Position numbers and translations under genes: made by a program. A stretch of 64,000 nucleotides of DNA from a virus. Of the stretch, positions 71-25,314 are shown one piece after another. How positions within the stretch are numbered: position 1 is the stretch's first letter; each line of letters starts with the position of its first letter. The notes under the pieces are model-generated. The model was not told the origin of the DNA. It did no database searches and saw only the letters and a list, made by a program, of their open reading frames with translations. The stretch spans positions 1 through 64,000 of the IMG/VR virus record IMGVR_UViG_3300037826_000058; one strand, given 5' to 3'.

Positions 71-74
71 TTAT

Positions 75-341
75 CCTCTTGTCAGATTATTGCTGATAAA
101 CAGCCGAGCCTGACTACTCGTATATGTACCCTCGCCAATGCGACTGAACGTGATGTCCGGTCTTTACCCGCGTCCCCGACAAGAGAGGACTTACAGAGCC
201 AAAAACTGGGCAAGCATTCTTGGGTGTTACCATTCAGCGCGTAGCCCTTGACTATATCCTTGCGGAAACGGGCTTAGGCTAGTCAACCTTACTGACATCC
301 CTGTCCTGACAAGCTCCCCGCTTTAGCGGGGAGAAGTTGAC
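75..341 (-). ncRNA. omega-RNA (HEARO-like) of an IS200/IS605 IscB element
   Basis: Minus strand reads GTCAACTTCTCCCCGCTAAAGCGGGGAGCTTG...GTTGACTAGCCTAAG...CTACG...AACACCCAAGAATGCTTGCCCAGTTTTTGGCTCTGT...CATTGGCGAGGG, the usual HEARO/omega-RNA motif order; 3' boundary approximate. Confidence 0.85.
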
Positions 342-346
342 ATTTT

Positions 347-1993
347 TCATAACATCGGGTTCCATTTATTCCTTTGGTATCGCTCATATCGCGAACGATA
401 CGGCATTTGTGACATGTGATCGGGCAAGCGAGACGCTTCTTGTGACCCGCCAATGAATGCATACCTCAGAGCATCCGGTGAATTATCAAACCTTTTCTCC
501 GGTCTGTCTCTGTCAAACCCCCCATCGGGTTTCCGCTTGCACTGATAACCTTTATCCAGTGCGTAGATTAACTTCTTGCAACGGGGGTCTACAAATAATG
601 ACGTGATACCCTGGGCATCCAAAAAAGCGTCACGTATTTGACCAACTCCATACATAATACTGCGTTTGTCCTTGCTAACAATCTTGCCGTTCAAACCTAT
701 ACGACGCCAATCCTCAGCCTCATCACCAGCAGCGGCCTCCATCCAATATACATCAACCATCTTGCCAAACCGCTTCTCAATATCGCGTCGCATCTCAAAT
801 GCAGCCTCTCGAATGCGAGACGGGGTAGAGTTATTGTCCGCCCACTCGTCAACAACCCAGCGTAGGCGACGACCATTTTTTAAGACCTTGGGGGCTTCAG
901 CTATAATGACCACCCGCCCCTTGGTGCGAAGGTCTACCCCACCAAAGAACTTCCACGCCGATATATCTGCACCCTCTGGTGGGAATTCCTTAACGTGCGT
1001 ATCAGTAGAGAACTGGCTGTAGACTAATCCCTCAGATGTCCCACGCATCATGAACATCTGCAAAACAAATAGCTCTACATCTGTCGATACCAAAAACTTG
1101 TCTACCGCGTCACTGTAAGGATAGTACCCTCGCGACCTGGCACCACGCCCCCTGCAAAGCTCTTCCTCCTTCTGTGTGAATGGATTTGTCCAGATATAGA
1201 ACGGGCACCCCTCACATTCTTTGGGGTAAGAGCGTCCGCACGGCTCAATAATGTCTAAGAGATCATATTCGTAGACCTCAATTCCTCGTTCGTCTGCCGA
1301 TTCAACAAGTGTTTGTAGTGTTCCATAATACTCATACTGCGACGACCCCATCAGGATGGTCGATGAATAAGGGCCACGACTAATCGGCATCTGTAAGGCA
1401 ATGTTCAGCGTGTCTAAATCAATATGGTCTAACTCGTCTATTCCCAACAGATTGGGGTGAGGCCCCGATACAGACTTCTTGCTTCCCCCTGTTCTAATCT
1501 CTAGCCTGCTACCATTTTTCAGGGCGGTCTTGCTGACCATCGGTTCGCCGGCTAAATTGTCATTAAACGCCGGTCTTCTAATAAAACCAGCCTCACCCTC
1601 CTTTTTGGGGTCGCCAGCATAATAGGCATACCCCTTCTGAGATTGTTGCTCTGTCCCGCCCACATGCACAATCTCAAAATCAGACTTGAAAACGGTGTTG
1701 AGTAAATAAATAATAGAAAACCCCAGTGTTTTGCCACCACCACGACAAGCCCTGATAAGCCCCTTGCTTATATCTCCAAAATAAGCATCAGCGATGAATT
1801 CAAACAGCGGACGGTGACCAGGAGCAGTAACAGTGCGGGGTATCTTGTATCCCAAAACATCACGTATCCACTCCCAGAGTTCATCTCTGGTAGTAGGTCT
1901 TTGGGATGCCTTCTCAAGCGCACGGCGTTTTTGCTCGTCCTTCAGGTCAGAGAGGGCGGCTTCCAGCAATGCTTGGGCCTGAGGATTACTCAT
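347..1993 (-). CDS. terL: Terminase large subunit
   Basis: Walker A-like CRGGGKT, Walker B LLGIDE, RNase H-like nuclease GGVD and C-terminal DNSPDALRY. Confidence 0.85.
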   Translation of the reverse strand: MSNPQAQALLEAALSDLKDEQKRRALEKASQRPTTRDELWEWIRDVLGYKIPRTVTAPGHRPLFEFIADAYFGDISKGLIRACRGGGKTLGFSIIYLLNTVFKSDFEIVHVGGTEQQSQKGYAYYAGDPKKEGEAGFIRRPAFNDNLAGEPMVSKTALKNGSRLEIRTGGSKKSVSGPHPNLLGIDELDHIDLDTLNIALQMPISRGPYSSTILMGSSQYEYYGTLQTLVESADERGIEVYEYDLLDIIEPCGRSYPKECEGCPFYIWTNPFTQKEEELCRGRGARSRGYYPYSDAVDKFLVSTDVELFVLQMFMMRGTSEGLVYSQFSTDTHVKEFPPEGADISAWKFFGGVDLRTKGRVVIIAEAPKVLKNGRRLRWVVDEWADNNSTPSRIREAAFEMRRDIEKRFGKMVDVYWMEAAAGDEAEDWRRIGLNGKIVSKDKRSIMYGVGQIRDAFLDAQGITSLFVDPRCKKLIYALDKGYQCKRKPDGGFDRDRPEKRFDNSPDALRYAFIGGSQEASRLPDHMSQMPYRSRYERYQRNKWNPML

Positions 1994-2543
1994 CTACTTC
2001 CTCGTAACTTCCATCAATAACTTGCTGAATGTCTTCGGTGTCACCACTTCTAAGCATTCCTGTGATTTTATCAATAGCGTCTGACAGTTCTCTATCCCCC
2101 ATTCCCTGAAAATTGAAAACAGCCGTTTGACTTGGAGGCTTTTTATTTGCCGCTTCACCCTGGCTGATCTTTCTGATAGTATCTACTACTTCCACAGGGT
2201 CTTTCTTAGTTAAGGGAAGACCCTCACGCTTTCGAGCGTCTATGACGCTCTCCAGCATTTTCTGCAAGGCGGCTATCTGCGCCATGGGGTCATCCATATA
2301 AATGTTCTCTCGTAAACGCCGCTCCTTTTCTCTGGTAAATGCAGGGTGATGACCACAATCCATCTGCGACAAATATGATACATCACACCCCAATCTTTCT
2401 GCAATCTTCGTTTTTTCCCCATGAGGTACAATGCCACCATATTCCTCAAGAACAATATCCAAATATTGCTCCTGAAGCTCTGTAAGTTCCTTTTTACCAG
2501 ACCTTTTTTCCTGTAAAGCAACTAACGCCATACTATCCCCCAC
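1986..2543 (-). CDS. Probable terminase small subunit (HTH)
   Basis: Overlaps the terL start; N-terminal HTH-like KTKIAERLGCDVSYLSQ; helical 185 aa. Confidence 0.55.
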   Translation of the reverse strand: MGDSMALVALQEKRSGKKELTELQEQYLDIVLEEYGGIVPHGEKTKIAERLGCDVSYLSQMDCGHHPAFTREKERRLRENIYMDDPMAQIAALQKMLESVIDARKREGLPLTKKDPVEVVDTIRKISQGEAANKKPPSQTAVFNFQGMGDRELSDAIDKITGMLRSGDTEDIQQVIDGSYEEVDE

Positions 2544-2605
2544 TTAATTTTTTTACAACTGTACCAAACTTATCATTCAATAATAACAAACGTCAAGGTT
2601 CTTCC

Positions 2606-2634
2606 TTGACAAAATGGTACGCATCTGATATAAT
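2606..2634 (+). promoter_or_regulatory. sigma70-type promoter
   Basis: TTGACA-17 nt-TATAAT, with TG extended -10, upstream of the HNH/recA operon. Confidence 0.85.
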
Positions 2635-2667
2635 GTATTCCTAGAGAGTACATAGAGAGTTGTTAAA

Positions 2668-3018
2668 ATGGGAAAGAGAGGCGACAAGGGTAGAGAGTAC
2701 AACCAAAAAACGTGGGCAACCACAATTACCAGAGACAAGGGTAAATGCCAAGTCTGTGGTAGTAAAGCGTCCGATGTACACGAAATCGTGTCACGGGCGC
2801 ATTTCGGCTCAAGAACACAACACCTATGCTATGCACTGAAAAACAGGTGTTGTGTTTGCGATTCTTGTCACAGAAAAGTACAAGGACAAGAAAAATGGAT
2901 GGTGTGGTTACTGGTAAAGATGCGTAACAAATATGGTTACAAATATCCTGAACCCACCTTCCAAAGATATTTGCGGTTAGAGGGGTTCTATACACATGCA
3001 AACAACGCTGGCGGTTAA
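2668..3018 (+). CDS. HNH endonuclease
   Basis: RDKGKCQVCG...DVHEI...NRCCVCDSCH zinc/HNH pattern. Confidence 0.75.
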   Translation: MGKRGDKGREYNQKTWATTITRDKGKCQVCGSKASDVHEIVSRAHFGSRTQHLCYALKNRCCVCDSCHRKVQGQEKWMVWLLVKMRNKYGYKYPEPTFQRYLRLEGFYTHANNAGG

Positions 3019-3355
3019 AGGTACTATATCCGACGATTACCATGATGATGCATTCTTTTATAGCGCACAAAGGTTACAAACAAGGATAGGTACTAACTTG
3101 GTCGCCGTTATAGAGCGACTAGGTGGCAAGGCTGTGGTTGACCTGCGGTATGAGGAAAATCATCACGACAGCATCTGTTACCCAAAAACAGAGGTAGTGC
3201 TACGGGCTATCATCAGCACACCACAAGATCATCTACCAGAAAGCCCGTCCAGATATAGAGGATACCCTGCTGTCTGGGTATGCGGTAAGTGTGGATTGCT
3301 CACCCAAGAAGATCGATGCCCAGAGTGCAATACCCCACGATCTGTCTACCGATAG
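2996..3355 (+). CDS. Hypothetical protein with C-terminal Zn ribbon
   Basis: WVCGKCG...RCPECNTPR; overlaps neighbours in the operon. Confidence 0.6.
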   Translation: MQTTLAVKGTISDDYHDDAFFYSAQRLQTRIGTNLVAVIERLGGKAVVDLRYEENHHDSICYPKTEVVLRAIISTPQDHLPESPSRYRGYPAVWVCGKCGLLTQEDRCPECNTPRSVYR

Positions 3356-3357
3356 AT

Positions 3358-3873
3358 ATGGCTCACGAGAGAGGTATGGCGGATGCGGAGTGTGGTAAAA
3401 GCATGCGTGATTGGGGCTGGTTCGCTTACAAGAAGGGTGATGCTATGTATTGCCCGCACTGTGGAAAATTGGTGTTGCCAGGAGCCGCTTCTGGTACATG
3501 GGATTTTCCAAAGGTTGGTGTCCCCGCGTGGAGCAAGCGAGAAAGCATCTTCATCGACGTAGAAGTAAAAGCCGGAAACACCAGCATACCCTTCGGGGAT
3601 TTAAGAGATAATCAGCGCCAGTGGGCAGAGGACAACCCAGAGCGCGAAAAATGGCTCTGGTTTTGTATTGGCAAGAATCGAGTGAACTCAACACATCACG
3701 CTCGTAGAACGTGGTTGTTTCCTTACAATGTTTTTCTGGAATGGGAACAACAGCTAGAGCGAAAATCTTTGCCATACTGCTACGAACCAATGATGGTTTA
3801 CGTTCTGGAGTGGGTAGGAGATGGTATTTGGACAGTGCCAGAACGACACCCGATATATAGTTACTTGAGGTAA
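3358..3873 (+). CDS. PD-(D/E)XK nuclease, Holliday-junction-resolvase-like
   Basis: WDF...IDVEVK motif plus CPHC; start placed at ATG 3358. Confidence 0.55.
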   Translation: MAHERGMADAECGKSMRDWGWFAYKKGDAMYCPHCGKLVLPGAASGTWDFPKVGVPAWSKRESIFIDVEVKAGNTSIPFGDLRDNQRQWAEDNPEREKWLWFCIGKNRVNSTHHARRTWLFPYNVFLEWEQQLERKSLPYCYEPMMVYVLEWVGDGIWTVPERHPIYSYLR

Positions 3874-3875
3874 AA

Positions 3876-4124
3876 ATGCCATCCCCATATTCGATAAGAT
3901 TCGAGCCTGAAATCAGAGAGAAACTGGATGCCGAAGTAGAGCGTCGTCAAATGGACTCGCTAGCATCACTTCTCAACCTGATTATCAGTGAGTGGTTCCG
4001 TCGTAGAGAAGAACCGCAAACACAGATATACGAAGCTCCAAACGGTGTGATGATAGAGGTAGCGTTCTACAACGACACGTCTGGAGTAGAGATTGTAGGA
4101 GTCAAACCATTATGCAAGGATTAA
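3876..4124 (+). CDS. Ribbon-helix-helix-like DNA-binding protein
   Basis: YSIRFEPEIREKLDAEVERRQMDSLASLLNLIISEW, CopG/Arc-like pattern. Confidence 0.55.
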   Translation: MPSPYSIRFEPEIREKLDAEVERRQMDSLASLLNLIISEWFRRREEPQTQIYEAPNGVMIEVAFYNDTSGVEIVGVKPLCKD

Positions 4125-5143
4125 GTAAAATAGAAAGAAAATACCCAGGTGTAGTCACAACGTTCAACGACTATCCAGATGTTGATGTCATATCAACAGG
4201 TTCCATCAAACTGGATAGAGCCATCGGGGCAAAAGACAAACTACTTGGTGTTCCCCTGGGAAGAATCACAATCCTGTGGGGAGAGAAAGGTAGCGGTAAA
4301 ACCAGTGTGTCTTTGTCAATAGTTGCACAAGCCCAGAAAATGGGGCTTAAATGTGCCTACGTAGATGTAGAATTCGCCCTAGACCACACCTACGCCCAAA
4401 AGTGTGGTGTGAATCTAGACGACCTAATCAGGATAAAGCCAGTAGAGGAAAGCACGGGTTCCCTTCTTCCCATGGAGGGGGTTTGGGAGATTATCGAGGG
4501 GCTAGCAAGAAGTAACAAAATAGACCTTATCATCCTTGATTCCCTCGACGCCCTCACCCCCAAGGCGGAGATAGAAGGAGAGGTAGGGGAATCCCACGTG
4601 GGTCTCAAAGCACGTATCAATGCACAGGCTATGAGAAAAATAGTCGGCCCGCTGATGATTAACAATACAGCCCTTATTGTAACAGGGCAAAGAAGGTACA
4701 AGATTGGTGGCTGGGGAAATCCAGAGACCATGAGTGGCGGACAAGCCATTCAACATGCCGCCAGTCTAAGAATTGATTTGTCCCCCCGAAAACCCACAAA
4801 GGACAAAGACGGTAAACCTGTTCGCCAGCCCACTCACTGTTATGTGAAATGGAGCAAAATCGCACCACCCAGCCACAGTGCTACCATTGTGATAGAATAT
4901 GGGCGAGGCATTTGTATCGAGGAAGAAGTGCTTGATCTTGGGGAAGAGCTAGGGGTGTTTGAAAAGAATGGAGCTTACTACTACTTCACAGAAAGTGAAT
5001 CCCCAGACGCGCACGGCTCGTTTGGAGCCACCGTTTTCCTGAGAGACCACCAAGACATTTTAAGCGAATTACTAGACGAAATAAGGAAAAAGCTAAATGG
5101 TACTGAGGATGAAACAAGCAGCAGAGAAATTGAGGAAGAATAA
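4112..5143 (+). CDS. recA: RecA recombinase
   Basis: ISTGSIKLDRAIG, GEKGSGKT, IILDSLDALTPKAEIEGE, ETMSGGQAIQHAASLRI. Confidence 0.95.
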   Translation: MQGLSKIERKYPGVVTTFNDYPDVDVISTGSIKLDRAIGAKDKLLGVPLGRITILWGEKGSGKTSVSLSIVAQAQKMGLKCAYVDVEFALDHTYAQKCGVNLDDLIRIKPVEESTGSLLPMEGVWEIIEGLARSNKIDLIILDSLDALTPKAEIEGEVGESHVGLKARINAQAMRKIVGPLMINNTALIVTGQRRYKIGGWGNPETMSGGQAIQHAASLRIDLSPRKPTKDKDGKPVRQPTHCYVKWSKIAPPSHSATIVIEYGRGICIEEEVLDLGEELGVFEKNGAYYYFTESESPDAHGSFGATVFLRDHQDILSELLDEIRKKLNGTEDETSSREIEEE

Positions 5144-5568
5144 TGGATTGGAAAGACTTCAAAGAAAGAGAAGACATGCACCTTTGGGGGCCACGCCTCT
5201 TGGAACTAAGAAAAACTGGGAACGTGTTTACATATTCACAGATAGCAAAAATGTGGGGGGTAGAATCGTCATGGTTGACCATCACGGTATGGGCACGCCG
5301 ATATGATTGCGTTACCATAGATCAATCTACGAAACCACACCAAATCACTTTCGACTGGAATGGTCTAGAGATTGAAGAAAAAGTCGATGTAAAACCGCAA
5401 ACCAAATGGAATATCGAACAAAGAATCCACGAGCCAGTTGAAAGCACCAATCAACACGAAGGATGGAATGTTGAACGTCAACGAGGTAGATTGACAGTTA
5501 ATGATAAGTGGGTTGTATTCGTGGACAACGGGGTTGTTGTTAGCAAAACGTTGCTAGAAAATGCCTAA
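5143..5568 (+). CDS. Hypothetical protein
   Basis: Translationally coupled ORF (TAATG overlap). Confidence 0.6.
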   Translation: MDWKDFKEREDMHLWGPRLLELRKTGNVFTYSQIAKMWGVESSWLTITVWARRYDCVTIDQSTKPHQITFDWNGLEIEEKVDVKPQTKWNIEQRIHEPVESTNQHEGWNVERQRGRLTVNDKWVVFVDNGVVVSKTLLENA

Positions 5569-6190
5569 CTATAAGACACACAAAAAAGCATCCGTTGTTC
5601 TGGCGGGCGGATGCGCAATAATGACTTGGGTAGCCACTGGTGGTCACCTGAGCTGGAACCATGAAACGGCGTTTGGGGTTGTGGTGTCCGGTGTCGTTGC
5701 AATAGGTTGTTACGCTGGGGGTACATTCTTCTCACCCGACTTAGACCTCCCCAGTACACCCTATAACAACTGGAAGCTGGCACGGTTACTATGGCTTCCA
5801 TATCAAATATTCACCGGACATCGCAGCCCAGTGTCACATTGGCCCATCATGGGGGCCATGATACAGCAATTTTACTTGCTGTTTATGCTCACGTTATTAT
5901 CTATAGCAGGTACGCTAGCATGGAACCTGGTGTTTGTACCCTACACCGATCTAGGGCGTCTGTATGGTGCTACCAGGACAGCATGGACTATCAAAGACAT
6001 TCTAGGTATCATGATCAGCCCTCTGAAAAGCCCCGCTTATTGGGTCTTTATCGGGGGGCAAAGCATCGGCTCGGCTTTTCACTGTATCATGGATTGGGCC
6101 GATAGTAAGCGTCGTCGTCATTATCAAGGACAACCAATGGGGCCTGATGACGAGGATGAAAAAGCAAACGTTAGAGGATTATGGGGGTAA
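5561..6190 (+). CDS. Metal-binding membrane protein (DUF2227/YdjM-like)
   Basis: N-terminal TH, SPDLD, HRSPVSHWP and FHCIMD motifs with hydrophobic helices. Confidence 0.7.
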   Translation: MPNYKTHKKASVVLAGGCAIMTWVATGGHLSWNHETAFGVVVSGVVAIGCYAGGTFFSPDLDLPSTPYNNWKLARLLWLPYQIFTGHRSPVSHWPIMGAMIQQFYLLFMLTLLSIAGTLAWNLVFVPYTDLGRLYGATRTAWTIKDILGIMISPLKSPAYWVFIGGQSIGSAFHCIMDWADSKRRRHYQGQPMGPDDEDEKANVRGLWG

Positions 6191-6193
6191 GAT

Positions 6194-6562
6194 ATGGGCT
6201 ATCAAAAAATTGTCATTGTGGGGCACATTGGAAAGGACGCCGAGCTGCGCTACTTAGGAGACGGTACACCAGTTGCCAATTTCAACGTCGCTGTCTCTGA
6301 CTACAAAGACAAGACCATTTGGTTTAGAGTCGCTGTCTGGAGAGACAGGGCCGAGAACCTAGCAGGATACCTCACCAAGGGAAAACAAGTCTTGGTAGAG
6401 GGGAAAATGAACGAACCTAATGCATGGATAAAAGGAGATGAAGCAAAAGCATCGCTAGAAATGACAGGGTATCGTATAGAATTCTTGGGAGGAGGAAACG
6501 ACAACAACAAAAAAGAAACAACGAAGGGGAACAATGGTTCCGAGGAGGATATTCCGTTTTGA
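6194..6562 (+). CDS. ssb: Single-stranded DNA-binding protein
   Basis: VGHIGKDAELRY...VANFNVA...KGKQVLVEG; acidic tail EEDIPF. Confidence 0.95.
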   Translation: MGYQKIVIVGHIGKDAELRYLGDGTPVANFNVAVSDYKDKTIWFRVAVWRDRAENLAGYLTKGKQVLVEGKMNEPNAWIKGDEAKASLEMTGYRIEFLGGGNDNNKKETTKGNNGSEEDIPF

Positions 6563-6993
6563 CAAGAATAGTCTTTGACAAATATGCACCTGACGCAAGT
6601 TCAGGCTCGTGGATATACAGCACGTTGCCGTACCCTGAAGCAATCATTAAGAAAACCTATGCGGCGGTTGAGACATTCAGTACAGAGGTCAATAAAATGA
6701 GCGTTAAGGTAAACAAGTCTCAGGAGGACAAAATGAATACACGTAGATTGGTAGAAGTAATAGTGATTGACCCGGATTCTAGAGTGCCGGATGACAAAGC
6801 GTTATTGCTACACACCCACCCCTTCTTGACAGACGCCAGCGACAAAGCAATATTCTATGAGCACGGGCTGGCTGAGCTACTCAAGGAACACAACAAAGTC
6901 AGGGAAGGGCTTGACCTACCCCCCGTCACACTAGACGATATTGTGTTCAAAGTAAATACGTTGAACACAACATATCTAACTCACACCGACTAA
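6559..6993 (+). CDS. Hypothetical protein (true start may be 6697 or 6733)
   Basis: ORF coupled to the downstream FtsK gene; AGGAGG RBS before 6733. Confidence 0.55.
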   Translation: MTRIVFDKYAPDASSGSWIYSTLPYPEAIIKKTYAAVETFSTEVNKMSVKVNKSQEDKMNTRRLVEVIVIDPDSRVPDDKALLLHTHPFLTDASDKAIFYEHGLAELLKEHNKVREGLDLPPVTLDDIVFKVNTLNTTYLTHTD

Positions 6994-8381
6994 TGCTAGA
7001 AGAGAGCACTGTCAACAAGCTGAACAAGGCTGCCACCATCATAGAGGCGGCTTGCTACGACGCTGGGGTTCCGATCATCATAGACAGTAACGGTATCTCG
7101 GCACTTGGCAACCAGTGTCGGTTCTATGCACGACCCGCAAGGTCGTCGCGTGATTTAGGCGAGCTGAAGAAAAGGTTAAAGCTAAACAGTATACATTATG
7201 GTAAAGATGCGTTTAGGAACCTCTCTACGCTTAGAAAAAGTGCAGCTGACCCCATCAGGGCCGGTTTAATGCTACCCAGGGCTGCAGGATTTACCATAGA
7301 TATATCGCAGGGTATGGTAGTTTTTGACTTCTCTCTATCTGACCTGGTAGGCAGTGATGTATTTGCTTACCTGGACATCAGTGATTTACCATATCCGGAA
7401 AAAAACGCTATTCCCATGGGGGTAACCCTTGAGGGGGAGACAGTCGTCTTCGACCCCACACATCCCAACCACTGCCACGCCCTGATTGCAGGTATTACTG
7501 GTTCTGGAAAGACAGTGCTCTCAAATACAATCATCGCTGGTTTGGTGCGAGCCTACACACCCGATGAGTTAAAGATGTTTATGTCATCTGGAAAACCAGA
7601 AGATGTTAGAATATGGGACGGACTCCCACACCTCCTAGCTCCTCCTACATACGAACCCCACAAAGCGTTCTCTATGCTGAAATGGGTAGAAGAGGAGCGA
7701 CGCCAACGAGCTGAAAAGGTAAACGGGGATAAGGATGGTCTGCCCCTAATCGTAGTATATATCGGTGAGGTTAGCGTGTTAACCGACCTCAACCCCACCA
7801 AGTTCGGAGACTTGTTAGAAAACTTGACCCGCCTTGGTCGTAGCGATAGAATCATGCTAATCTGTGCAACGCAAAGACCACGTGGTGACCAGATTGGCAA
7901 CATTGTCGCTAAATCGCAAATACCACTGGTCATCTGTGGCAAGGTACAGAACCCGCAAGATTCTTACCTGGCCTTGGGTAAGGGCAGTGGGGGGGCCGAA
8001 ACCCTTCCTGGGCGTGGTTCGTTTATCACAAATAACTTAGTGAAGTTTCAAGCCGCTTTCACCTGTGACGATAACAAACCCGACCGTGCCGAACAAATCA
8101 TAAACGGGTACGCCAGAAAATGGGATGCCGAATACGTAGAGTTACCAGACGACGACATCGAGGCTACTGGTACTGCACGCGACAGCGAAGTGCATGAGGT
8201 TATAGCATGGTTCAAGCAAGACACTATAGAAGAAACGTCTATATCCCATATCATGAGAAATATGAACTGGGGATACCCTAGAGCGTCAAGGGTATATGAA
8301 GCATTAGAGGATATGAACGTTGTCAGCGAAGAAAGAAACGACAACCGAAGAGCACCAGTGTTTTTGGAGAAAATAGAATGA
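6993..8381 (+). CDS. FtsK/SpoIIIE-family DNA translocase with C-terminal gamma (wHTH) domain
   Basis: HALIAGITGSGKT, RLGRSDRIMLICATQRP, GAETLPGRG; gamma-like TSISHIMRNMNWGYPRASRVYEALE. Walker B is atypical (VVYIGE). Confidence 0.85.
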   Translation: MLEESTVNKLNKAATIIEAACYDAGVPIIIDSNGISALGNQCRFYARPARSSRDLGELKKRLKLNSIHYGKDAFRNLSTLRKSAADPIRAGLMLPRAAGFTIDISQGMVVFDFSLSDLVGSDVFAYLDISDLPYPEKNAIPMGVTLEGETVVFDPTHPNHCHALIAGITGSGKTVLSNTIIAGLVRAYTPDELKMFMSSGKPEDVRIWDGLPHLLAPPTYEPHKAFSMLKWVEEERRQRAEKVNGDKDGLPLIVVYIGEVSVLTDLNPTKFGDLLENLTRLGRSDRIMLICATQRPRGDQIGNIVAKSQIPLVICGKVQNPQDSYLALGKGSGGAETLPGRGSFITNNLVKFQAAFTCDDNKPDRAEQIINGYARKWDAEYVELPDDDIEATGTARDSEVHEVIAWFKQDTIEETSISHIMRNMNWGYPRASRVYEALEDMNVVSEERNDNRRAPVFLEKIE

Positions 8382-8539
8382 TCCCTTGGATAGTGGCAAC
8401 CTTGGCGGTGGGTATCTTGGTTGGGTTTGTAGCTGGTACTTTTTTTGGATGGAAGGTTTGGGGGGCAAGGGAAAAGCCCGCATCGGTATCCACTCAACAA
8501 AGCACACAGCCTAAACGCAACGTAAGAATACCAGCCTGA
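8378..8539 (+). CDS. Small single-TM protein, 53 aa (not in the ORF track)
   Basis: Manual translation MIPWIVATLAVGILVGFVAGTFFGWKVWGAREK...; ATGA and TGATG overlaps at its two ends. Confidence 0.7.
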   Translation: MIPWIVATLAVGILVGFVAGTFFGWKVWGAREKPASVSTQQSTQPKRNVRIPA

Positions 8540-9084
8540 TGGAACAAGAACGAATTGTGTGGCGACGTTGCTTCATCGCGGTATTGCGAGATATAAGGCA
8601 CTCACTCTTGTTTGTCATCACTACGACGATCTTTACAACAATGATGACGATTAAAGTGTTCTCGCCTTACTTACAATATGCAACTATCACCCCCATCACA
8701 ATAGCGTTTTTAATGGCGTTTTATACGATACCCGTGATTGCAATTATCATTTTTGGGTTTGACCTTAGAGACGCGACAGATGAAAAATACGAAATCACAG
8801 AGGATGGTAAAATCAGTATCCTTTACAGAAAGTGGGCTACATTCTATAGCCCTCGCTCTGGTGATGTGAGCAGAGTTGATACTGGATACATCATCCAAGA
8901 CGGGCTGTTGGCAAATCTTTTCAACTATGGAGACGTTTTCTTGCAAGTGGGTTGGAGCAAGACACCGTTCAAAATCACCGAGGTTAATAACCCACAAAAA
9001 GTATTGAGAACTATACTAGAAAGAGCTAAGGCCCCATCCGCAGAGGAAGGGGAGAGCGCTCTAGGGAATATAATGTATGGGTAA
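8539..9084 (+). CDS. Membrane protein with bacterial PH-like domain
   Basis: Two TM helices, then YEIT...QDGLLANLFNYGDVFLQ...VNNPQKV (bPH_2-like pattern). Confidence 0.65.
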   Translation: MEQERIVWRRCFIAVLRDIRHSLLFVITTTIFTTMMTIKVFSPYLQYATITPITIAFLMAFYTIPVIAIIIFGFDLRDATDEKYEITEDGKISILYRKWATFYSPRSGDVSRVDTGYIIQDGLLANLFNYGDVFLQVGWSKTPFKITEVNNPQKVLRTILERAKAPSAEEGESALGNIMYG

Positions 9085-9775
9085 GAATGGTGGTGGGCTT
9101 TTTATCTTCTTATTATTAGCAGCTATCATTGTAGCTGTAGCATGGGGAATCGTGCGCGGGATTGGTACGATGGCACACGCTAGAGCCGATATGTACAGAG
9201 AGCAAAAATCCGTCGAGATAGAATCGGATGAGTTCGATCTTTCTGTCAGAAAAGAAAAGTGGGACGCCATCCAAGACGAGTGGCAAACCTCTATGGAAAA
9301 CTTTGTCAACTCTGTTGCATGGACAGTTAAATGGGGATTCAAGGTGGTTGCTACCGCGACAATCATTACCCTTTCACTTACCGTCGTGGTGTTGGGGATA
9401 GGGTTTTCATACAATTTCTTCCAAAGGAAAACCATGGAAGCACATCAGGTATTACCAGATCGAGCTATCCTGTTTCCAGGGCACAACATCTACGACGCAA
9501 GACTGGGTACGTCTAACGACTACACTCAGCCGGTAAGCATGCCACCAGAAGACAGAGCTAGGTCTCTGGCCGACTACCGATCAACGGTAATGAATGGATA
9601 CTCAGAGATTGTCACAGCGGCCCTAACACGCATTCAAACAAGAGGGTTTGCTACGGTGGGTGAACAACACCTCCTGGAAAAACTGGGTATAAAAGAGAAG
9701 GAGGTTCTAGACGGGCAATGGAAGGAAATATCAGAGTCGGAAGCCAGAAAGAAGCTGATTAACATGGGAGACTAG
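9077..9775 (+). CDS. Membrane protein (2 TM)
   Basis: Two hydrophobic segments; coupled to neighbours. Confidence 0.65.
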   Translation: MGKNGGGLFIFLLLAAIIVAVAWGIVRGIGTMAHARADMYREQKSVEIESDEFDLSVRKEKWDAIQDEWQTSMENFVNSVAWTVKWGFKVVATATIITLSLTVVVLGIGFSYNFFQRKTMEAHQVLPDRAILFPGHNIYDARLGTSNDYTQPVSMPPEDRARSLADYRSTVMNGYSEIVTAALTRIQTRGFATVGEQHLLEKLGIKEKEVLDGQWKEISESEARKKLINMGD

Positions 9776-9777
9776 AG

Positions 9778-10653
9778 ATGGAAAAAACTATTGATAAGCT
9801 ACGCGCCCTCTCTCGTACATCAGAGAGCACCATGGCAACCCTGGAAACTGTACTAGTTAGCATCGTGGGGCGGTTGGCATGCTGGTTGGCCCCTATCCCA
9901 TCAGCCTTGCTCGTAAGCCGAGCAAGCAAAGAGATATTCTCATTATCTCTTGTCGAAGGGTTAATCATCGCTGTTGTGATTGAGATGGTGGGCCTGGTTA
10001 CATCTAATCTTTGGCTCACATTCAAGGAATGGAATACCACCAAACTAAAGTCAGAGGCTGGTGCTAACGAAAATCTAGCGCTGGGTTTAATGATGGGGTA
10101 CTTTGTAATATCATTCTTGCTTTTGTTAGGAATGGAATTACCAACAGTAATCAATGAAGGAAAAGTCCAGAACCTCATCGCCCTTTCGTTTCCAGGCTTA
10201 AGCGCCATTGGCGTCATATCGCTCAACCAGCGTGTTACTCATTTCCACCGCGTGAATGAAGCGGAAAGAGAGGCCGAGGAAAGAGCCAGAAGGCGGAAAG
10301 AGAGAAGTGAATCAAGGGAGATGAAAAAAGCGCAAAGGAAAGCCGAAGAAGCCGAAAGGAAGGCTAAGGAAGCTGAAGAGAAAGCCAAGGAAGCACAAAG
10401 GAAAATAGAGAAAGCCGAGAGGAAGGTTGAGGACGCGCAAAGGAAAAAACAGGAAGTTAGAAAGGCACTAATGGAAACGCTAGGAACTGAGAAGGAAACA
10501 CTAGGATACTATATGGAAAACCCTAGCGCACCCCAAAGCCAAGCAGCGGAAAGCATAGGAGTAACACCACGCACAATCAGGAATCACCTACAAATCTTGG
10601 AGGAATCTAAGATAATCAAGAAAAACGGGGACGGTATAGAAATCTTGATCTAA
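9778..10653 (+). CDS. Multi-TM, coiled-coil, C-terminal wHTH protein
   Basis: About 4 TM helices, an E/K/R coiled coil, then PSAPQSQAAESIGVTPRTIRNHLQILEESKII. Confidence 0.75.
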   Translation: MEKTIDKLRALSRTSESTMATLETVLVSIVGRLACWLAPIPSALLVSRASKEIFSLSLVEGLIIAVVIEMVGLVTSNLWLTFKEWNTTKLKSEAGANENLALGLMMGYFVISFLLLLGMELPTVINEGKVQNLIALSFPGLSAIGVISLNQRVTHFHRVNEAEREAEERARRRKERSESREMKKAQRKAEEAERKAKEAEEKAKEAQRKIEKAERKVEDAQRKKQEVRKALMETLGTEKETLGYYMENPSAPQSQAAESIGVTPRTIRNHLQILEESKIIKKNGDGIEILI

Positions 10654-10655
10654 AC

Positions 10656-10693
10656 AAAAAGCCCTGGGTAACAATCCCAGGGCTTTCGCTTTT
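10656..10693. terminator. Bidirectional intrinsic terminator
   Basis: AAAAAGCCCTGGG-TAACAAT-CCCAGGGCTTTCGCTTTT between convergent genes. Confidence 0.8.
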
Positions 10694-10697
10694 CTAG

Positions 10698-10714
10698 TGT
10701 AACATCATGTTACA
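10698..10714. repeat. 17-bp palindrome A, copy 1 (TGTAACATCATGTTACA)
   Basis: Exact copy; contains the stop codon of the exonuclease gene. Confidence 0.9.
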
Positions 10715-11430
10715 GCAGGATAGTGCTCCATCCAATCGTAGAACTCTTCTCGCTTGAATGGATTATCCATCCAGCTCGTATCTGGAAGCGGTAGCCCATA
10801 CGCTTCCTCGACAGGCAAAAAGCGCTTGCTGGGCTGCCATACCGAACTTTTCCCCGACCGAGTAATCCATTCCACAGCTCCACGCTCATTCATCTTTTCC
10901 CAAGCACGGGCTGTCAGCAATGCGTCGTGTTTAACATACTCAATGACTTCCAGTTGCTCCTCGAAACCCAGCGACCATTTCTCTACAGCCTCTAGCCCGT
11001 CCATTGTCTTAACCCCTAAGTCGTTGACCTCCGCATAAGACCCAAGGCCAATCATAAAACCTTTCTCACAAAGCATGTGGAAAGCGGGGTCATAACTTCC
11101 CCAGGCTATGGTTTCGACGCGCTCTTTGTAACGAGCGCTGGCATTACCCGCTAAGACAGGAAAATCGAACCCCATCCCGTTCCAAGATACAATTTGGTAT
11201 CCCTGCTTGTAATGTTCCCAAAGCCAGCAGACAACACGATTTATGTGTAACTCCTTCATTACCTCAAATCCTACCCCCTGAACAAAATCCCCATAGAAGG
11301 AGGATTTGAGGGTATGTTGTTCTCCACTAATGTAGTAGCCTACACACGTAATATCTAACTTCCCGATGCTTGCCCTGTCATCGGGGGCTTTCTGCGAGGT
11401 TTCGATGTCAAACGCGACGTACTTTTCCAT
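10705..11430 (-). CDS. RNase H-like DEDD 3'-5' exonuclease
   Basis: Exo motifs AFDIET, SWNGMGFDFPVL, YVKHDA. Confidence 0.8.
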   Translation of the reverse strand: MEKYVAFDIETSQKAPDDRASIGKLDITCVGYYISGEQHTLKSSFYGDFVQGVGFEVMKELHINRVVCWLWEHYKQGYQIVSWNGMGFDFPVLAGNASARYKERVETIAWGSYDPAFHMLCEKGFMIGLGSYAEVNDLGVKTMDGLEAVEKWSLGFEEQLEVIEYVKHDALLTARAWEKMNERGAVEWITRSGKSSVWQPSKRFLPVEEAYGLPLPDTSWMDNPFKREEFYDWMEHYPAVT

Positions 11431-11851
11431 TATAATACCTTACCTTATACCGACTGAAAAAATGTGGCCCTAGACCGCGAGCCACAATACCATCTACTTC
11501 TACCATACCCACCCCCTCACAAGGGGCTGGTAGAGCCAAGCTGCGTATTCTGCCACACACTTCTTGATACTGACATCTCCCACAGGGCTTAGGGGGTACT
11601 GCGGGGTGCAGCACCAGTGTGTTTATCCACACCCCCCAGTATTCCCCAGCCTTGTATGGAGATGTACCGAAAAGGTCAGCAATATCATATATCATATCGC
11701 GACCGGGGGTTCCGGTTAAAGACAGTGACTTGGCACTGTCTACCCAACGCCATACCGTCCTGGGTTCAACCCCCAGCCTGCTTCCTACTTCCTCAATACC
11801 CCATCCTCGCTTTTCCATCTCGACTTGAAGGTCAAATCCCTTCCCAGTCAT
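11408..11851 (-). CDS. XRE-like HTH protein with Cys cluster
   Basis: RGWGIEEVGSRLGVEPRTVWRW; PCGRCQYQEVC...PCE. Confidence 0.65.
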   Translation of the reverse strand: MTGKGFDLQVEMEKRGWGIEEVGSRLGVEPRTVWRWVDSAKSLSLTGTPGRDMIYDIADLFGTSPYKAGEYWGVWINTLVLHPAVPPKPCGRCQYQEVCGRIRSLALPAPCEGVGMVEVDGIVARGLGPHFFSRYKVRYYNGKVRRV

Positions 11852-12233
11852 CGATTAAATCCCCCATCAGGCGCTCTAGTCTGTAATCAGCAAGGTCTTT
11901 CTCAACCCCAGATGACGTGAAGTATTCCATCAAGGCATTATAACTATTGCTAATATGGTGCGTCAATACCATAGATAGTAGATTCACATACTCTTCCACC
12001 ATCTCTTTAGGCACATCTTCCTCTCGCCCCGATAGCTGAAGAGTTATCCTAACTAGGGCATCTGACAGACCTGCGCCTAAATATGCGCACATTTCATCTA
12101 CGTTTTGGGATTTGCTTACCAGAACCAAGCACTGCTTCCCCCCACGCAGATAATAAGCACTAGCCACTTCACCCTTCTTAACATTCGTCAAATCCATCCC
12201 CAACCTAAACATAGTATTGGCGCTTTTATTCAT
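11832..12233 (-). CDS. Hypothetical protein
   Basis: Coupled ORF in the minus-strand operon. Confidence 0.55.
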   Translation of the reverse strand: MNKSANTMFRLGMDLTNVKKGEVASAYYLRGGKQCLVLVSKSQNVDEMCAYLGAGLSDALVRITLQLSGREEDVPKEMVEEYVNLLSMVLTHHISNSYNALMEYFTSSGVEKDLADYRLERLMGDLIDDWEGI

Positions 12234-12475
12234 CAGAACACCCTTGCTTGAGAAGCATCTACCTTAACGCGCACCCCACAGACGTTAAGCAAATTAACAA
12301 CAGCTACTTGGGGGTTGTTGCCATAACCTTTATACTGCTTCCCATCGATTTTTGTTTCAGCACACCACCCCTCACTATCTCGATAAACCTCAATTTCTTG
12401 GATGGGCACCAGCCCCTCAGACAGCGCAGCTTCTTCTACGCTGTCAAACCCGCCAGTGACAAACTGCACTTTCAT
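12233..12475 (-). CDS. Hypothetical protein (start MKVQF)
   Basis: AGGAGG RBS before ATG 12475. Confidence 0.6.
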   Translation of the reverse strand: MKVQFVTGGFDSVEEAALSEGLVPIQEIEVYRDSEGWCAETKIDGKQYKGYGNNPQVAVVNLLNVCGVRVKVDASQARVF

Positions 12476-12476
12476 C

Positions 12477-13031
12477 CTATCCTCCTGTAAACGGCAAAAC
12501 AATACCCTTTTGATGCTGATACCGTCCCTTGCGATCAGCATACGATACATCGCAAATCTCATCAGCACTAAGGAAAACGAGCTGCGCAATTCCCTCACCA
12601 GCATAAACCTTAGCCGGAAGGGGTGTTGTGTTGCTAATTTCAATGGTGATGTAGCCCTTCCACTCCGGCTCTAAGGGGGTCACGTTCACTACAATACCGC
12701 ACCGCGCATACGTGCTTTTCCCCAAGCATATCACCATGATGTCTCTGGGTACTTCAACCCACTCTAATGACCTTGCTAAAGCAAAAGAGTTGGGGGGAAT
12801 AATGCAATACCCTGCTGAGTTAAGGGATACAAAGGATGCATCTGGAAACCGCTTGGGGTCTACACACTTCCACGGTACTCCAGCGCAAACCCTAAATTCG
12901 TTGGCTACTCGGATGTCGTAACCGTAAGAAGAAAGACCATAGGATATTGCTCCACCCTCGCTAACTTGATGGTCAACAAAGGGGGTAATCATCCCCTCTC
13001 TTAATTTAATCTGCTTGTCACTCAGTGGCAT
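12477..13031 (-). CDS. dcd: dCTP deaminase
   Basis: [44 protein letters not shown]. Confidence 0.95.
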
Positions 13032-13274
13032 CAGACCTCCATATCACTTTGTATCCGCTACCCAGATTGTTTATCACAGTGTTCATGCTCTCCGACGTGG
13101 GTTGTACAACAAATTGTATCTCATCACCCGCATCAGTTGCAATCAGAGCAACTATATCAGAGGAATTTGACGTTGCTACAGTCAACCCCTCTCCAATATT
13201 CCTGGTGTTTAACTGTACCTTCTCACCACTGATAAAACGTATGTTCACACGCGTGCTCGCCGGCCTAAACAACA

Positions 13275-13919
13275 TCAAACCATCCTCCTTTCAGTGGAAA
13301 CCTTGCAACGAGGGCAATAATAATACTCTTCTTCTACTACCTCCTTCTCCGTATACCTATAGACAAGGTGCTTTTCCATCGACCTCATGCAACGGTCACA
13401 AATTACGTTTGTACCATGCCTAAGCGGTGCTAGCCATGCATTTTTTCCGAATTTCTCTAGTTGATAACAACTACACCCCAGATCAACAATAGGAGCACAA
13501 TCACCTTCATTGTTACCCCAATTCCATTCACACTCTGGACACGGGGTCTGTCCTTCGGTAAAACCAAGATATTCTTGTTCACCAAACTCATGTCCACAAC
13601 GTGGGCACTCGCCCAGGCAAGCATCACATAGCTCCTCAACTTGCATAGGCCAGTATCCCGCACCATGTGGAGCACCATTCTCCGTATAAACCACAACACC
13701 AGTTGCTCCACACTCACGACAGTAATCGGGGTAATTAGCCTCATATTCTCTGAGGCGAGCAACCTGCCCGTCATAGGCAGTGTTACATGCTGTCGTGTGT
13801 CTGTCTCTATTCCTCACGATGGGACTCCCTTTCGCCTTCATGGCGCATCCTCTCGAATTCAACTCCCTTAGCAAACCCCCATCCCCTAAACCGTGCCGTG
13901 GTGTTTTTGTATACGACAT
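13275..13919 (-). CDS. Cys-rich multi-Zn-finger protein (start uncertain)
   Basis: Six or more CxxC pairs. Confidence 0.6.
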   Translation of the reverse strand: MSYTKTPRHGLGDGGLLRELNSRGCAMKAKGSPIVRNRDRHTTACNTAYDGQVARLREYEANYPDYCRECGATGVVVYTENGAPHGAGYWPMQVEELCDACLGECPRCGHEFGEQEYLGFTEGQTPCPECEWNWGNNEGDCAPIVDLGCSCYQLEKFGKNAWLAPLRHGTNVICDRCMRSMEKHLVYRYTEKEVVEEEYYYCPRCKVSTERRMV

Positions 13920-14707
13920 TCATAACCTGTGATACAGTGACTAAGAGAGCAACACCTATCACCATGTGAAGAATGTGAGAAAGATTAGGGGTTGCATCCC
14001 ATATGTTTCCGATGACGACCCCCACCAAATATCCCGCTATCACGGACATTACGCCCAGGTTTTCCTCTACATAAGCCTTGACAATCACTTTAACCTCCAA
14101 ATAACAGATGATGCCCATCCATACAATATGACCCAGGGAATAATAATCCCAGAGCCATATGTATCCATTAATGCCCCAAGGGGCATTAACACAAGATATA
14201 ACAACGTTCCGCAAAGAATCAACCTTAGAACTATGCTAACACCCTCTTTTTCTTCAGGCTCTGGCTCGGTTTCCGGTTCTTCTTGGGAAAACAAGAAAAG
14301 GATTATCGTACCCATTACCCATGCAGACACAGCCAAGACTGTACCTGTCTTTGACCACGCCTTGTGGGCTACGAGTACGTAACCCCCAGCGATGCTCGCC
14401 ATAACAACCTTAAAAACCCATGGTGCCAACTTCTCACTCACCTAATACCGCCTCGATTATACGCCCCTTCCATTCATACCCCCCATCCTCAGCGTTGTCC
14501 AAGACATCTTGATAACACTTTGGGCATAACGGAATATCAATTCTCCTTGCGCAGGGTTCCCGCTCTACCTCGTAGGATACAAGGTAGTTGTGAGTGCACG
14601 GGAAACATATATCCGCCCCGCACTTTACGCACTCTTGACGCGACAGTGCGTTCATGCATGCATCACAAACACGTACTTTCTTTAACATTTTTACCTCCTC
14701 ACTGACA

Positions 14708-14736
14708 ATTATACACTATCCAGCACCCACTGTCAA
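14708..14736 (-). promoter_or_regulatory. sigma70-type promoter
   Basis: TTGACA-17-TATAAT on the minus strand. Confidence 0.8.
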
Positions 14737-16921
14737 GAAGAAAAACCTTAAAGTCTCTCAAACCTATCTGGAAGGTCTACTGGAATACCTTCCATGGTTC
14801 CTAACCACTCCCGTCTCGATTTGTTGTTCCGCCTCCTCTGTTCAAAATACCAATCAAAAAAGCCGGAACGATGGTACAACATATGCAGAATCCCTACCGC
14901 CGCCTTACCGAGGTCATTGTCGAACTCGATGAACTCATCAACACTCGTGTCCCAATAAACACGACCCAAGACATAGCACCACCGATAGCACACTACTCTG
15001 CCCACCAAATTCCTTTGTCTATCGGTAGACAGGTGTGAAATGTGTCTGTCACGAATAGGCAACCCGCCACAACGCTTGCGAAGACCATTGCAACACGTCA
15101 TGTTGCGTCTTCCGATGTCACTGTGAAACGGGCAAAGCAACCCGTCCTTCCAGGTTAAGTATAGAGGCCCCCAGTCCCCGTGAAACCAAGAATGCAACGT
15201 CGCTAGAGTGGGTACGCAACGCACTTCATGTTCGGGGACAATGATTTTATATTCGTAGCGGTTGCCCCCACCCCACTCTCCTTTTTCCTTGTATCTAGCC
15301 CTCATCTCATTGAACTGTTGCTTGGTCATCCTGAGACTACCAGGGCGCATCGTGATAACCCGCTCAGGGATGGTCTTCATGTATGATTCCATTATGCCTT
15401 CTCCAAGTTCTTAACCTGCCACCAAGGGCCAAATGTAACACCCTCCGGCCATTCAACACACGCCATCAGCCGATGATTGCTTTCAAAGCGATACAGGATT
15501 TTTCCCGTAGGGTTTCCCTGTTCCTCGATAATCGCTTTGGCGTGCTGGCTCTCACAGTTACCAAGGTAAACCCTCACTCTGTCACCCGCCTTGAGGCGCA
15601 AGGATTCTATCTCTCTGTCTAGTTCTTCAATCATCACGTCAAGCACATCAATCGCCTCTTGACACGCCCTGGCGGTTTCCTCCATCTCCTCTTTCTCTCG
15701 AAGCCATGCGTCCATCAAGCTTCCCTCCTAACTGTCATGTGGTTTTGCAATCTACTTATGAACACAGGACGCATCTTGGTGTTATCGACAGAGAACACCA
15801 CGTTACCGCCCAAGGTCGTACAATCCTTAACGGTCACACTTTGTTTCATACCCATATCTGTTGCCAGAGAAAGGATAAACTCTTGAACATCTCCCCTGTC
15901 ATCTGATGGGGCTGGCTCTGCAACATACTCTACGCAACCAAGCTCTCGATTCACAGTGAAGTAGTAATCTCCCTCCTCAATATCTACATCAGCGTGAATT
16001 ACAATTACCCCATCCTCTACCGACACAACCGTTCCGCTAAACTTAGTCATGACCCCTCCTAAGCAGGTTCTGTGGATACCACCGCTTTTCAGCTAAGCAG
16101 ATGGTATCATTTTGGGCATAGCCCACACGCGAGACATCTTAGGGTGTGCTTCAGACACCCTTGTACCACACACTCTACACATACTCGTGAACCACCTTGA
16201 TTCTCATCTCACCTAGATAATCCACGCTGTAAATAAATTCATCTCCAATATCGGTGTTTCCAACCACCTTTCCCTTTTTCAGCGTCACATACGGTGACAC
16301 AAAAGAGGGCGTGGGGAACAATTTCTGCTCCGATAAGTGGATGACTTTCTCACGCATGGTATAATGTGAAAATTCACCAGAGTCATGAGCATGCACTGCT
16401 GCCCATATATAAACTCGATACCCATACATTTTCATCGCTCCCATTGATAATCTGGATATGTTTCTCGCACCCTTTCTTGTACTTCAAGAGCGTCCACTGA
16501 TGGGAATAAACGTAGCAAAAAATTTATCTCATCACGAGCAGCCCTGATTGCATCATGGAGAGTGCAAGAGTGATAATAATCAACGTAGGGTGTTTTCCTA
16601 CAGAACATACGTCCCGTTTCCAAATAAACAGGACAGCCATCACACCCAGGATGCCCCATGCACAGAGCACAAGTGTGGATATTCCCGTCCTCAAGTGCAA
16701 CTAAATCACCGTGCTTGTGGGGTATTGACCAGGGGAGAAGAGCTTCTCCCCGCGCAATCAGCACCGCTTCTACGGACATCCACTTTTGCACAGACAACGC
16801 CCCCAACTCAGCGTCGGACATTCCCTCTACTTCAATGGGCACATCAGTGCTCATTCTAAGATTCCCGACCTTCACTGGCACTGGAATAAAATTAACTTTC
16901 ATGTCTTCCCTCCATACCAAT

Positions 16922-16950
16922 ATGATACACGAAAACGCGGTCTATGTCAA
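16922..16950 (-). promoter_or_regulatory. sigma70-type promoter
   Basis: TTGACA-17-TATCAT on the minus strand. Confidence 0.75.
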
Positions 16951-24648: not shown

Positions 24649-24682
24649 AAAATTGGTTTGGGAAAGTTACAAGGAGGGTAGG

Positions 24683-25303: not shown

Positions 25304-25314
25304 GAAAGTTTTAG

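Follow-up and report, generated by a model that had tools for sequence, protein, structure and literature searches.

The first 64 kb of an IMG/VR virus record (IMGVR_UViG_3300037826_000058, 119,094 bp in all), referred to here as the window, carry a gene for an FtsK/SpoIIIE-type ATPase that runs directly into four genes for membrane proteins, and the question raised by this locus is what such a set of genes does in a phage. An earlier note on this DNA had likened the set to the TraB/Spd DNA-spreading module of Streptomyces. The best explanation that we can offer, and we hold it tentatively, is that the block is a membrane-tethered double-stranded DNA (dsDNA) translocation module placed within an early replication/recombination operon. 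That the five genes form a membrane-tethered dsDNA translocase acting on phage DNA appears probable; that the purpose of the module would be the virion-free passage of phage genomes into neighbouring cells, as the analogy with TraB/Spd would have it, appears rather doubtful.

As judged from the reading frames, the FtsK gene was shown to be translationally coupled to the four membrane-protein genes. The close coupling that had been described was confirmed, the open reading frames (ORFs) overlapping or being spaced by at most 3 nt, and a hydropathy scan counted one transmembrane (TM) segment in the 53-aa protein, two in the 181-aa protein and two in the 232-aa protein, with three segments over the TM threshold in the 291-aa protein. 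The five genes are as follows.

6993 to 8381, plus strand: FtsK motor of 462 aa (PF01580) with no TM segment, a gamma-type winged helix-turn-helix (wHTH) and a Walker B motif with GE in place of DE
8378 to 8539, plus strand: 53-aa single-TM protein (TM at residues 5-23) with the basic tail KRNVRIPA; its start overlaps the FtsK stop
8539 to 9084, plus strand: 181-aa protein with two TM helices and a probable PH-like domain, recurring in all three related loci
9077 to 9775, plus strand: 232-aa protein made of a TM segment (residues 8-26), a charged loop, a second TM segment (90-108) and a C-terminal domain
9778 to 10653, plus strand: 291-aa protein with a multi-TM domain, a long coiled coil and a wHTH at the C-terminus, from a large unnamed family

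The assignment of the first gene as an FtsK/SpoIIIE ATPase with a gamma-type wHTH was borne out by profile comparison. The motor matched PF01580 with 77.6 bits against a cut-off of 24, the gamma domain scored 28.9 bits with PF09397, just below the Pfam cut-off of 30.6, and a profile of ten orthologues aligned with E. coli FtsK through motor and gamma (2ius, 1.6e-34) as well as over gamma alone (2j5p, 5e-4). A word-indexed protein search returned nine orthologues of 457-485 aa with 36-55% identity, all of them metagenomic, followed by cellular FtsK proteins as the best remaining matches (28-34% identity over 60-81% of the query). The NCBIfam plasmid_TraB model gave the motor 24.8 bits, its cut-off being 800. 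Given the alignment of that profile with E. coli FtsK and the low score of the TraB model, we consider from these comparisons that the motor is a captured C-terminal half of a cellular FtsK and not a TraB. The N-terminal stretch of 135 residues shows conservation across the family yet is unrecognisable as FtsK_alpha. As had been stated, the translocase has no membrane anchor of its own: the hydropathy scan found zero TM segments in it, and PF13491 (FtsK_4TM) had no match in the whole record at E≤10.

The Walker B motif, which had been pointed to as a possible sign of an inactive ATPase, does read VVYIGE, and in the profile alignment the family's VVYLGEV faces VVLVDEF of E. coli. The suspicion of decay did not hold: Gly258-Glu259 is invariant in 10/10 orthologues, the window's protein included, and the Walker A lysine (GSGKT), the Walker B glutamate, the Q294/QR motif and several further motor positions are likewise kept in all ten. 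Since the glycine is retained across sequences as low as 36% identity, its conservation indicates a trait of the family that is under selection. The window also encodes, at 34663-35718 on the plus strand, a shorter second ATPase of FtsK/SpoIIIE type (351 aa; PF01580 6.5e-39, phrog_1358 7e-71). It is 37-40% identical to FtsK-like proteins of Mycobacterium phages such as LittleE and Omega; over the motor its identity to the first copy is just 34%, and its neighbours match no family.

For the 291-aa protein the description as a multi-TM protein with coiled coil and wHTH was upheld by an AlphaFold2 (AF2) model with a predicted local distance difference test score (pLDDT) of 93.3. In this model there are five N-terminal helices, the fifth of which (residues 130-234) extends as a coiled coil about 80 residues long and leads into the wHTH, which was recovered by VIA (Z 9.2-7.8 over residues 234-291) and by HTH_24 (7e-6). 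The fold searches matched only the wHTH of the model; its TM domain was barely probed by them. An exhaustive phmmer search delineated a family of 533 cluster representatives at E≤1e-3 (178 at ≤1e-10), most of them 220-300 aa long and many aligning over the full length. HTH_24 was found in 39/90 sampled members, and none of the 90 matched DUF2637 (E≤0.01) or any family over the TM part.

The same protein has no family in PHROGs, no tblastn relative among 50,697 phage records and no tblastn match in plasmids; in IMG/VR the protein itself retrieved coiled-coil noise only and its family query nothing. The homology to Spd proteins or DUF2637 that had been put forward for checking was not sustained, either in the record, where PF10935 (DUF2637) had no match at E≤10, or in the family: hhalign of the 90-member profile against pIJ101 SpdB, a single-sequence target that is itself without a Pfam family, gave a probability of 0.07%. 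The sole trace of DUF2637 was an Atlas feature neighbour at 0.76, belonging to a cluster that is 22% DUF2637, and such neighbours are flagged as often due to chance.

The PH-like domain proposed for the 181-aa protein is probable, as suggested by three weak supports. Its structure in the Atlas matched bPH_2/bPH_3 clusters at TM-scores of 0.64-0.81; an AF2 model built from four sequences (pLDDT 62) showed two TM helices, seven strands and a C-terminal helix; and in a Foldseek search this model retrieved the bacterial PH domains 3dcx and 3hsa in the top rows (E 0.06-0.1), followed almost solely by PH, PTB and FERM-F3 domains, all rows lying at E 0.06-0.35. The predicted layout of two N-terminal TM helices, a PH-like beta-sandwich and a C-terminal helix is that of bPH_2 membrane proteins of the YdbS/YdbT type, from which the 181-aa protein differs in that the model is of low confidence and the bPH_2 profile (PF03703) gave no match at E≤10. 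For the 232-aa protein the searches made detected no relatives.

Two related loci, L006 and L007, were compared with the window, giving three loci in all. L006 is a 92.7-kb IMG/VR contig (record G001, 84% complete) whose FtsK is 43% identical to that of the window, and the scan of IMG/VR for FtsK returned one related phage locus only; L007 is 2.6 kb long and has an FtsK of 54% identity. In L006 the genes run in the order resolvase-like protein, RecA, a 1102-aa insert, a homologue of the window's 141-aa protein, DUF2227, a 2-TM protein, FtsK, a 71-aa TM protein, a 185-aa TM+PH protein and ribonucleotide reductase. In L007 FtsK is followed by a small TM protein, two small extra ORFs, a protein with zinc ribbon, TM and PH parts, and a 2-TM protein truncated where the contig ends. 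The order FtsK, small TM protein, TM+PH protein was thus kept in 3/3 loci at FtsK identities of 43-54%. By alignment the small TM protein is 43% (L007) and 30% (L006) identical to that of the window, the one of L007 ending in KKRNVRIPA much like the 53-aa protein, and the PH proteins of the related loci are 35% and 24% identical to the window's. Between the 232-aa protein and the 2-TM proteins of L006 or L007 the similarity was not significant. The insert between RecA and the 141-aa homologue in L006 (5055-8363) is a 1102-aa ORF in which a peptidase-M23-like motif region was seen by eye.

Because one member of the 291-aa family was named from a Chloroflexi metagenome-assembled genome (MAG), Chloroflexota genomes were sampled. 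In an even, phylum-wide sample 4/401 genomes matched the family at E≤1e-5, two of them strongly and one of these two with five copies, and in one large class 15/401 matched at ≤1e-10; in Bdellovibrionota 0/201 genomes did. As only one control phylum was compared, the apparent enrichment in Chloroflexota is a lead and not a finding. Neighbourhoods were counted at 16 Chloroflexota loci. At six of the 16, the 291-aa family gene borders directly, on the same strand, on the gene for an FtsK_SpoIIIE ATPase of about 430-510 aa, which lies downstream in L026, L023, L019, L044 and L046 and upstream in L050; the two genes are adjacent or overlapping in L026, L044 and L023. A large serine recombinase follows one to three genes on at seven loci (L023, L044, L046, L043, L051, L049 and L024), ordinary host genes begin just past it in L043, L044, L051 and L049, and recombinase and FtsK-like ATPase occur together in L023, L044 and L046. 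DnaA_N or DUF3854 proteins are close by at four loci.

The FtsK-like proteins of L026, L044 and L046 resemble the phage motor in having no TM segment; they carry a canonical DE Walker B and are only 26% identical to it. After them come mutually related proteins with one or two TM segments, and L046 and L023 encode a further protein laid out as TM, coiled-coil loop, TM, alike in architecture only to the 232-aa protein of the phage, to which it shows no significant sequence similarity. A true bPH_2 protein (2e-14) stands beside the recombinase in L024. Taken together, the gene content suggests that these loci may be small elements of recombinase, FtsK-like ATPase, membrane proteins and DnaA_N/DUF3854 proteins, whose layout resembles that of actinomycete integrative and conjugative elements (AICEs). 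In one 6.9-Mb Chloroflexota genome (G019) five copies of the 291-aa family (L019, L021, L023, L025 and L026) and 18 PF01580 matches, in about 15 genes mostly for proteins of 340-540 aa, were observed, which suggests that this genome may hold many small FtsK-bearing elements.

In PMC3429521, AICEs are defined by Int, Rep and an FtsK-like Tra and are reported almost solely from Actinomycetales, a restriction put down to hyphal growth, FtsK-driven dsDNA transfer being regarded as a speciality of mycelial actinomycetes. PMC4447253 describes Streptomyces TraB as working with small, translationally coupled, poorly conserved membrane proteins (Spd) that are too diverse for homology calls. SpdB2 is presented there as a pore-forming 4-TM oligomer able to bind both dsDNA and TraB, and the use of machinery of this kind by phages figures only as a one-line speculation on actinophage SpdB2 homologues. 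The phage set is like TraB/Spd in that an FtsK-family motor with a C-terminal wHTH is operon-coupled with several small membrane proteins, among them the 291-aa protein, whose multi-TM part and predicted wHTH may be compared with the dsDNA-binding SpdB2 as described in PMC4447253, and the 291-aa family is found, as in the AICE definition of PMC3429521, in elements that combine an integrase with an FtsK-like ATPase. Unlike TraB, the phage motor is devoid of TM segments, stands far nearer to cellular FtsK and has GE in Walker B, and it is borne not by an actinomycete plasmid but by a 119-kb phage, probably virulent, with 48% G+C. The earlier comparison with TraB/Spd consequently survives in part, as a functional analogy in architecture and in the company kept by the 291-aa gene, and not as family membership, since no sequence match was obtained.

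With cellular FtsK the phage protein aligns through motor and gamma domain, as given above, but FtsK_4TM, the linker and a recognisable FtsK_alpha are missing, Walker B has its glycine, and the membrane and additional DNA-binding parts are on separate polypeptides. The FtsK-like proteins of Bacillus and Mycobacterium phages (phrog_1358) are likewise phage-borne and TM-less; the window's FtsK differs from them in being just 26-28% identical to the Bacillus phage ones and in having its own ten-member family and conserved membrane partners.

From these features we infer that the motor and the 291-aa protein may represent a TraB or FtsK split in two, with membrane domain, linker and wHTH on one chain and the motor on the other. 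The membrane proteins would then supply in trans what FtsK and TraB have in cis: the 291-aa and PH-domain proteins would hold the hexameric motor at the membrane, DNA would be held by two wHTH domains, that of FtsK gamma and that at the C-terminus of the 291-aa protein, and the motor would drive phage dsDNA across the membrane or along it. If TraB/Spd and the context of the elements are a guide, replicated phage genomes might pass in this way into neighbouring cells without virions. The boldest form of the idea, that a virulent tailed phage uses such a split TraB across the septa of a filamentous non-actinomycete host, Chloroflexota being the best lead, and that the same pair defines undescribed single-motor AICE-like elements outside Actinomycetota, seems decidedly unlikely to us. 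Complex prediction for FtsK with the 291-aa protein scored 0.00 in two runs, which is no answer and evidence neither way.

The genes before the motor bear on these readings. Between 2668 and 10653 there are 14 plus-strand ORFs with gaps that are all ≤3 nt, and 10/13 junctions overlap. A sigma-70 consensus promoter precedes them and a terminator-like hairpin lies 5 nt past the last stop codon, both as consensus matches only, and the whole is predicted from this arrangement to be one transcription unit. The placing of ssb and recA in one operon with FtsK and the membrane genes, as described earlier, was in this way confirmed by strand and spacing. Its further features are:

2606 to 2634, plus strand: sigma-70-type promoter match upstream of the operon (TTGACA, 17 nt, TATAAT, with TG before the -10), 12/12 consensus positions
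2668 to 3018, plus strand: HNH endonuclease-like protein, the operon's first gene (phrog_119/8446, 6e-7 to 1e-6)
2996 to 3355, plus strand: 119-aa protein with a weak C-terminal zinc-ribbon-like motif (DZR 0.007, below the cut-off)
3289 to 3873, plus strand: Holliday-junction-resolvase-like protein, a weak call (phrog_843, 0.003), with a homologue by eye at 3562-4053 of L006
3876 to 4124, plus strand: 82-aa protein with no family match
4112 to 5143, plus strand: RecA/UvsX-like recombinase (PF00154 3.2e-61, phrog_97 1e-58)
5143 to 5568, plus strand: 141-aa protein of no family, with a homologue at 8365-8847 of L006 (similarity by eye)
5561 to 6190, plus strand: DUF2227 membrane protein with two TM segments (PF09988 8.2e-26), counterpart at 8861-9484 of L006
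6194 to 6562, plus strand: single-strand DNA-binding protein, SSB (PF00436 2.6e-20, phrog_44 3e-29)
6559 to 6993, plus strand: 144-aa protein with no family and no TM segment
10658 to 10686, plus strand: terminator-like hairpin with an 11-bp stem, seven G-C pairs and a T-rich tail

The record itself is 91% complete by CheckV, and most of its proteins match no Pfam family. The description as a terminase-encoding phage kept some ground in the ORF at 347-1993, whose C-terminus is terminase-nuclease-like (phrog_6672, 7.8e-7 over residues 421-513) and whose single tblastn match is a hypothetical protein of Microcystis phage Mvi-JY20, and lost some in that the Pfam profiles Terminase_6N and HK97 capsid matched nowhere in the record. 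A tail-fibre-like protein, ribonucleotide reductase, a DnaB-like helicase, dCTP deaminase and a methyltransferase are also encoded. On these matches the evidence for a tailed phage is modest.

Concerning the host, GTDB with one genome per species yielded no orthologue of the phage FtsK family and generic FtsK genes only, the best of which came from Chloroflexi/Anaerolineales MAGs at 31-32% identity. When positions 1-20000 of the window were searched as DNA against 401 genomes of one Chloroflexota class, 116 genomes matched, nearly all of them on the dCTP deaminase gene (63-82% identity); because the same gene also matched 19/201 Bdellovibrionota genomes, at up to 77% identity, these matches are uninformative on the host. 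Two short near-exact matches of 26 and 27 nt do not lie in repeat arrays. Finally, no close relative among cultured phages was retrieved when the terminase-like, RecA and DUF2227 proteins were used as tblastn queries. The one putative link to Chloroflexota left by the sequence comparisons is the 291-aa family.

Several results weigh against the module and, above all, against cell-to-cell transfer. The synteny that had been named as a check held for the FtsK, small TM and PH genes (3/3 loci) and failed for the other two: no homologue of the 232-aa or the 291-aa protein was detectable in the whole of record G001, 84% complete, and the four-gene set is for this reason not a fixed unit. The change from Asp to Gly in the Walker B motif of all orthologues leaves the activity of the motor unproven. 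No over-represented, strand-skewed loading-site motif of the KOPS or clt type emerged from a scan of the 119-kb record with 7-10-mers, which was genome-wide and included no dedicated search for a localised clt array; neither clt-like repeats in that scan nor a TraR/Kor regulator, in both of which the phage departs from TraB/Spd, were identified, and no homology to SpdB, TraB or DUF2637, and no FtsK_4TM match, was detectable. Among the Chloroflexota loci, eight of the 16 lack an adjacent FtsK-like gene (L043, L051, L049, L024, L048, L045, L052 and L025), two more (L021 and L047) are cut by contig ends, and the small proteins of the phage show no similarity to those of the elements. The host, filamentous or otherwise, was not assignable by the GTDB, DNA or tblastn comparisons. 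No tyrosine or serine recombinase, and hence no integrase, was found in the 119-kb record, and 34 tRNA genes are packed on the minus strand into 14 kb outside the window (genome 90540-104619); on these two grounds the record looks like that of a virulent phage, for which virion-free spread would answer no obvious need. The operon context of RecA, SSB and resolvase-like protein, moreover, suits a role in replication equally well.

This last point leads to the main rival of cell-to-cell transfer, according to which the membrane-tethered motor serves to arrange or segregate phage DNA as it replicates within a single cell, with no intercellular transfer, be it as a membrane-anchored replication factory, by untangling or resolving concatemers, or by clearing proteins from DNA. 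Cellular FtsK acts in segregation and dimer resolution, and it is to cellular FtsK, gamma domain included, that the motor is closest; it also shares its predicted transcript with RecA, SSB, the HNH nuclease and the resolvase-like protein, and RecA, the 141-aa protein and DUF2227 remain linked to the FtsK gene in L006. Such a helper leaves unexplained, however, why the 291-aa family should accompany FtsK-like ATPases in tiny elements without a replication operon, and an Xer-type or other recombinase was not found in the record; although the RecA/SSB operon fits it just as well, we hold this explanation to be unlikely. The opposite possibility, that the membrane genes are unrelated neighbours that share a transcript with the FtsK gene and form no complex with it, would account for the lack of the 232- and 291-aa genes in G001, for the two extra small ORFs between the small TM and PH genes of L007 and for the half of the examined loci where the 291-aa family occurs without FtsK. 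It is distinctly improbable given that the order FtsK, small TM, PH is kept with start/stop overlaps in 3/3 loci and that the 291-aa family repeatedly adjoins another FtsK-like lineage, one with 26% identity to the phage motor.

A complex might also be formed and serve host takeover or exclusion, disturbing host segregation or division, or blocking or ejecting competing phage DNA at the membrane. Small membrane proteins are typical of superinfection-exclusion genes, and those of the phage would suit such a role, as would the early-type sigma-70 consensus promoter match; PHROGs places phage FtsK-like proteins in the class 'moron, auxiliary metabolic gene and host takeover', and FtsK-like domains are present in the defence proteins SspH and mad8. 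The PADLOC matches, however, are confined to the ATPase domain, none of the membrane proteins convincingly matching a defence family, and the 291-aa family is met in mobile-element backbones beside recombinases and not in defence islands, which makes this reading improbable. Still further from the data is a packaging vertex in a membrane-containing virion, made of the FtsK-like ATPase and small membrane proteins in the manner of PRD1, where P9 works with P20 and P22. Both FtsK-like proteins of the window do weakly match phrog_2666, 'terminase large subunit' (3.8e-7 and 1.9e-11), and the evidence for a classical terminase is weak, with Terminase_6N and HK97 capsid profiles silent. Against this stand the gamma wHTH and the closeness to cellular FtsK, the position of the gene in an early-looking replication operon, a 119-kb genome with 34 tRNAs and a tail-fibre-like protein, and the terminase-nuclease-like C-terminus of the ORF at 347-1993, so that packaging is very improbable.

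Returning to the translocation module, we have here a phage outside the actinomycetes whose FtsK motor is a true one and whose membrane partners are conserved; one of these partners comes from a large unnamed family that recurs in Chloroflexota beside FtsK-like ATPases and recombinases. Should the pair be a DNA pump, the spread of phages through multicellular bacteria without virions could be put to the test, single-motor elements of a second phylum would become candidates for conjugation, and a family with 533 or more sequence clusters would gain a function. In the literature covered, subscription journals lying outside the coverage, nothing joined FtsK, phage and Anaerolineae, and the papers on Chloroflexi, FtsK, integrative and conjugative that it contains deal, by title and the start of the abstract, with other subjects.

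Some further observations concern repeated sequences of the record. The 17-bp palindrome TGTAACATSATGTTACA occurs in ten perfect copies in the genome, seven in the window (10698-10714, 25988-26004, 27657-27673, 29025-29041, 31391-31407, 34620-34636 and 43779-43795) and three outside it (genome 71241, 99467 and 110324). One copy is found just past the operon terminator, and five lie 10-30 nt upstream of a ribosome-binding site and start codon in the plus-strand block of 25-35 kb, so that the palindrome looks like a putative operator or RNA hairpin. The gamma domains of FtsK type read polar 8-mers, from which its palindromic form differs. In the same part of the window a 55-nt promoter-like repeat (TTGACA, 17 nt, TAnAAT, with conserved flanks) is located upstream of several plus-strand genes at 24.6-31.2 kb, with copies at 24598-24653, 25293-25348, 28000-28055, 31152-31206 and others. 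On the minus strand, an ORF of 1856 aa at 54140-59710, without family match, possibly encodes a fibre or surface protein. It contains GTT/GTG-rich repeats with a 9-15-nt period at 55383-58669, in arrays that return every ~700-780 nt and would encode Thr/Asn/His-rich repeats on that strand.

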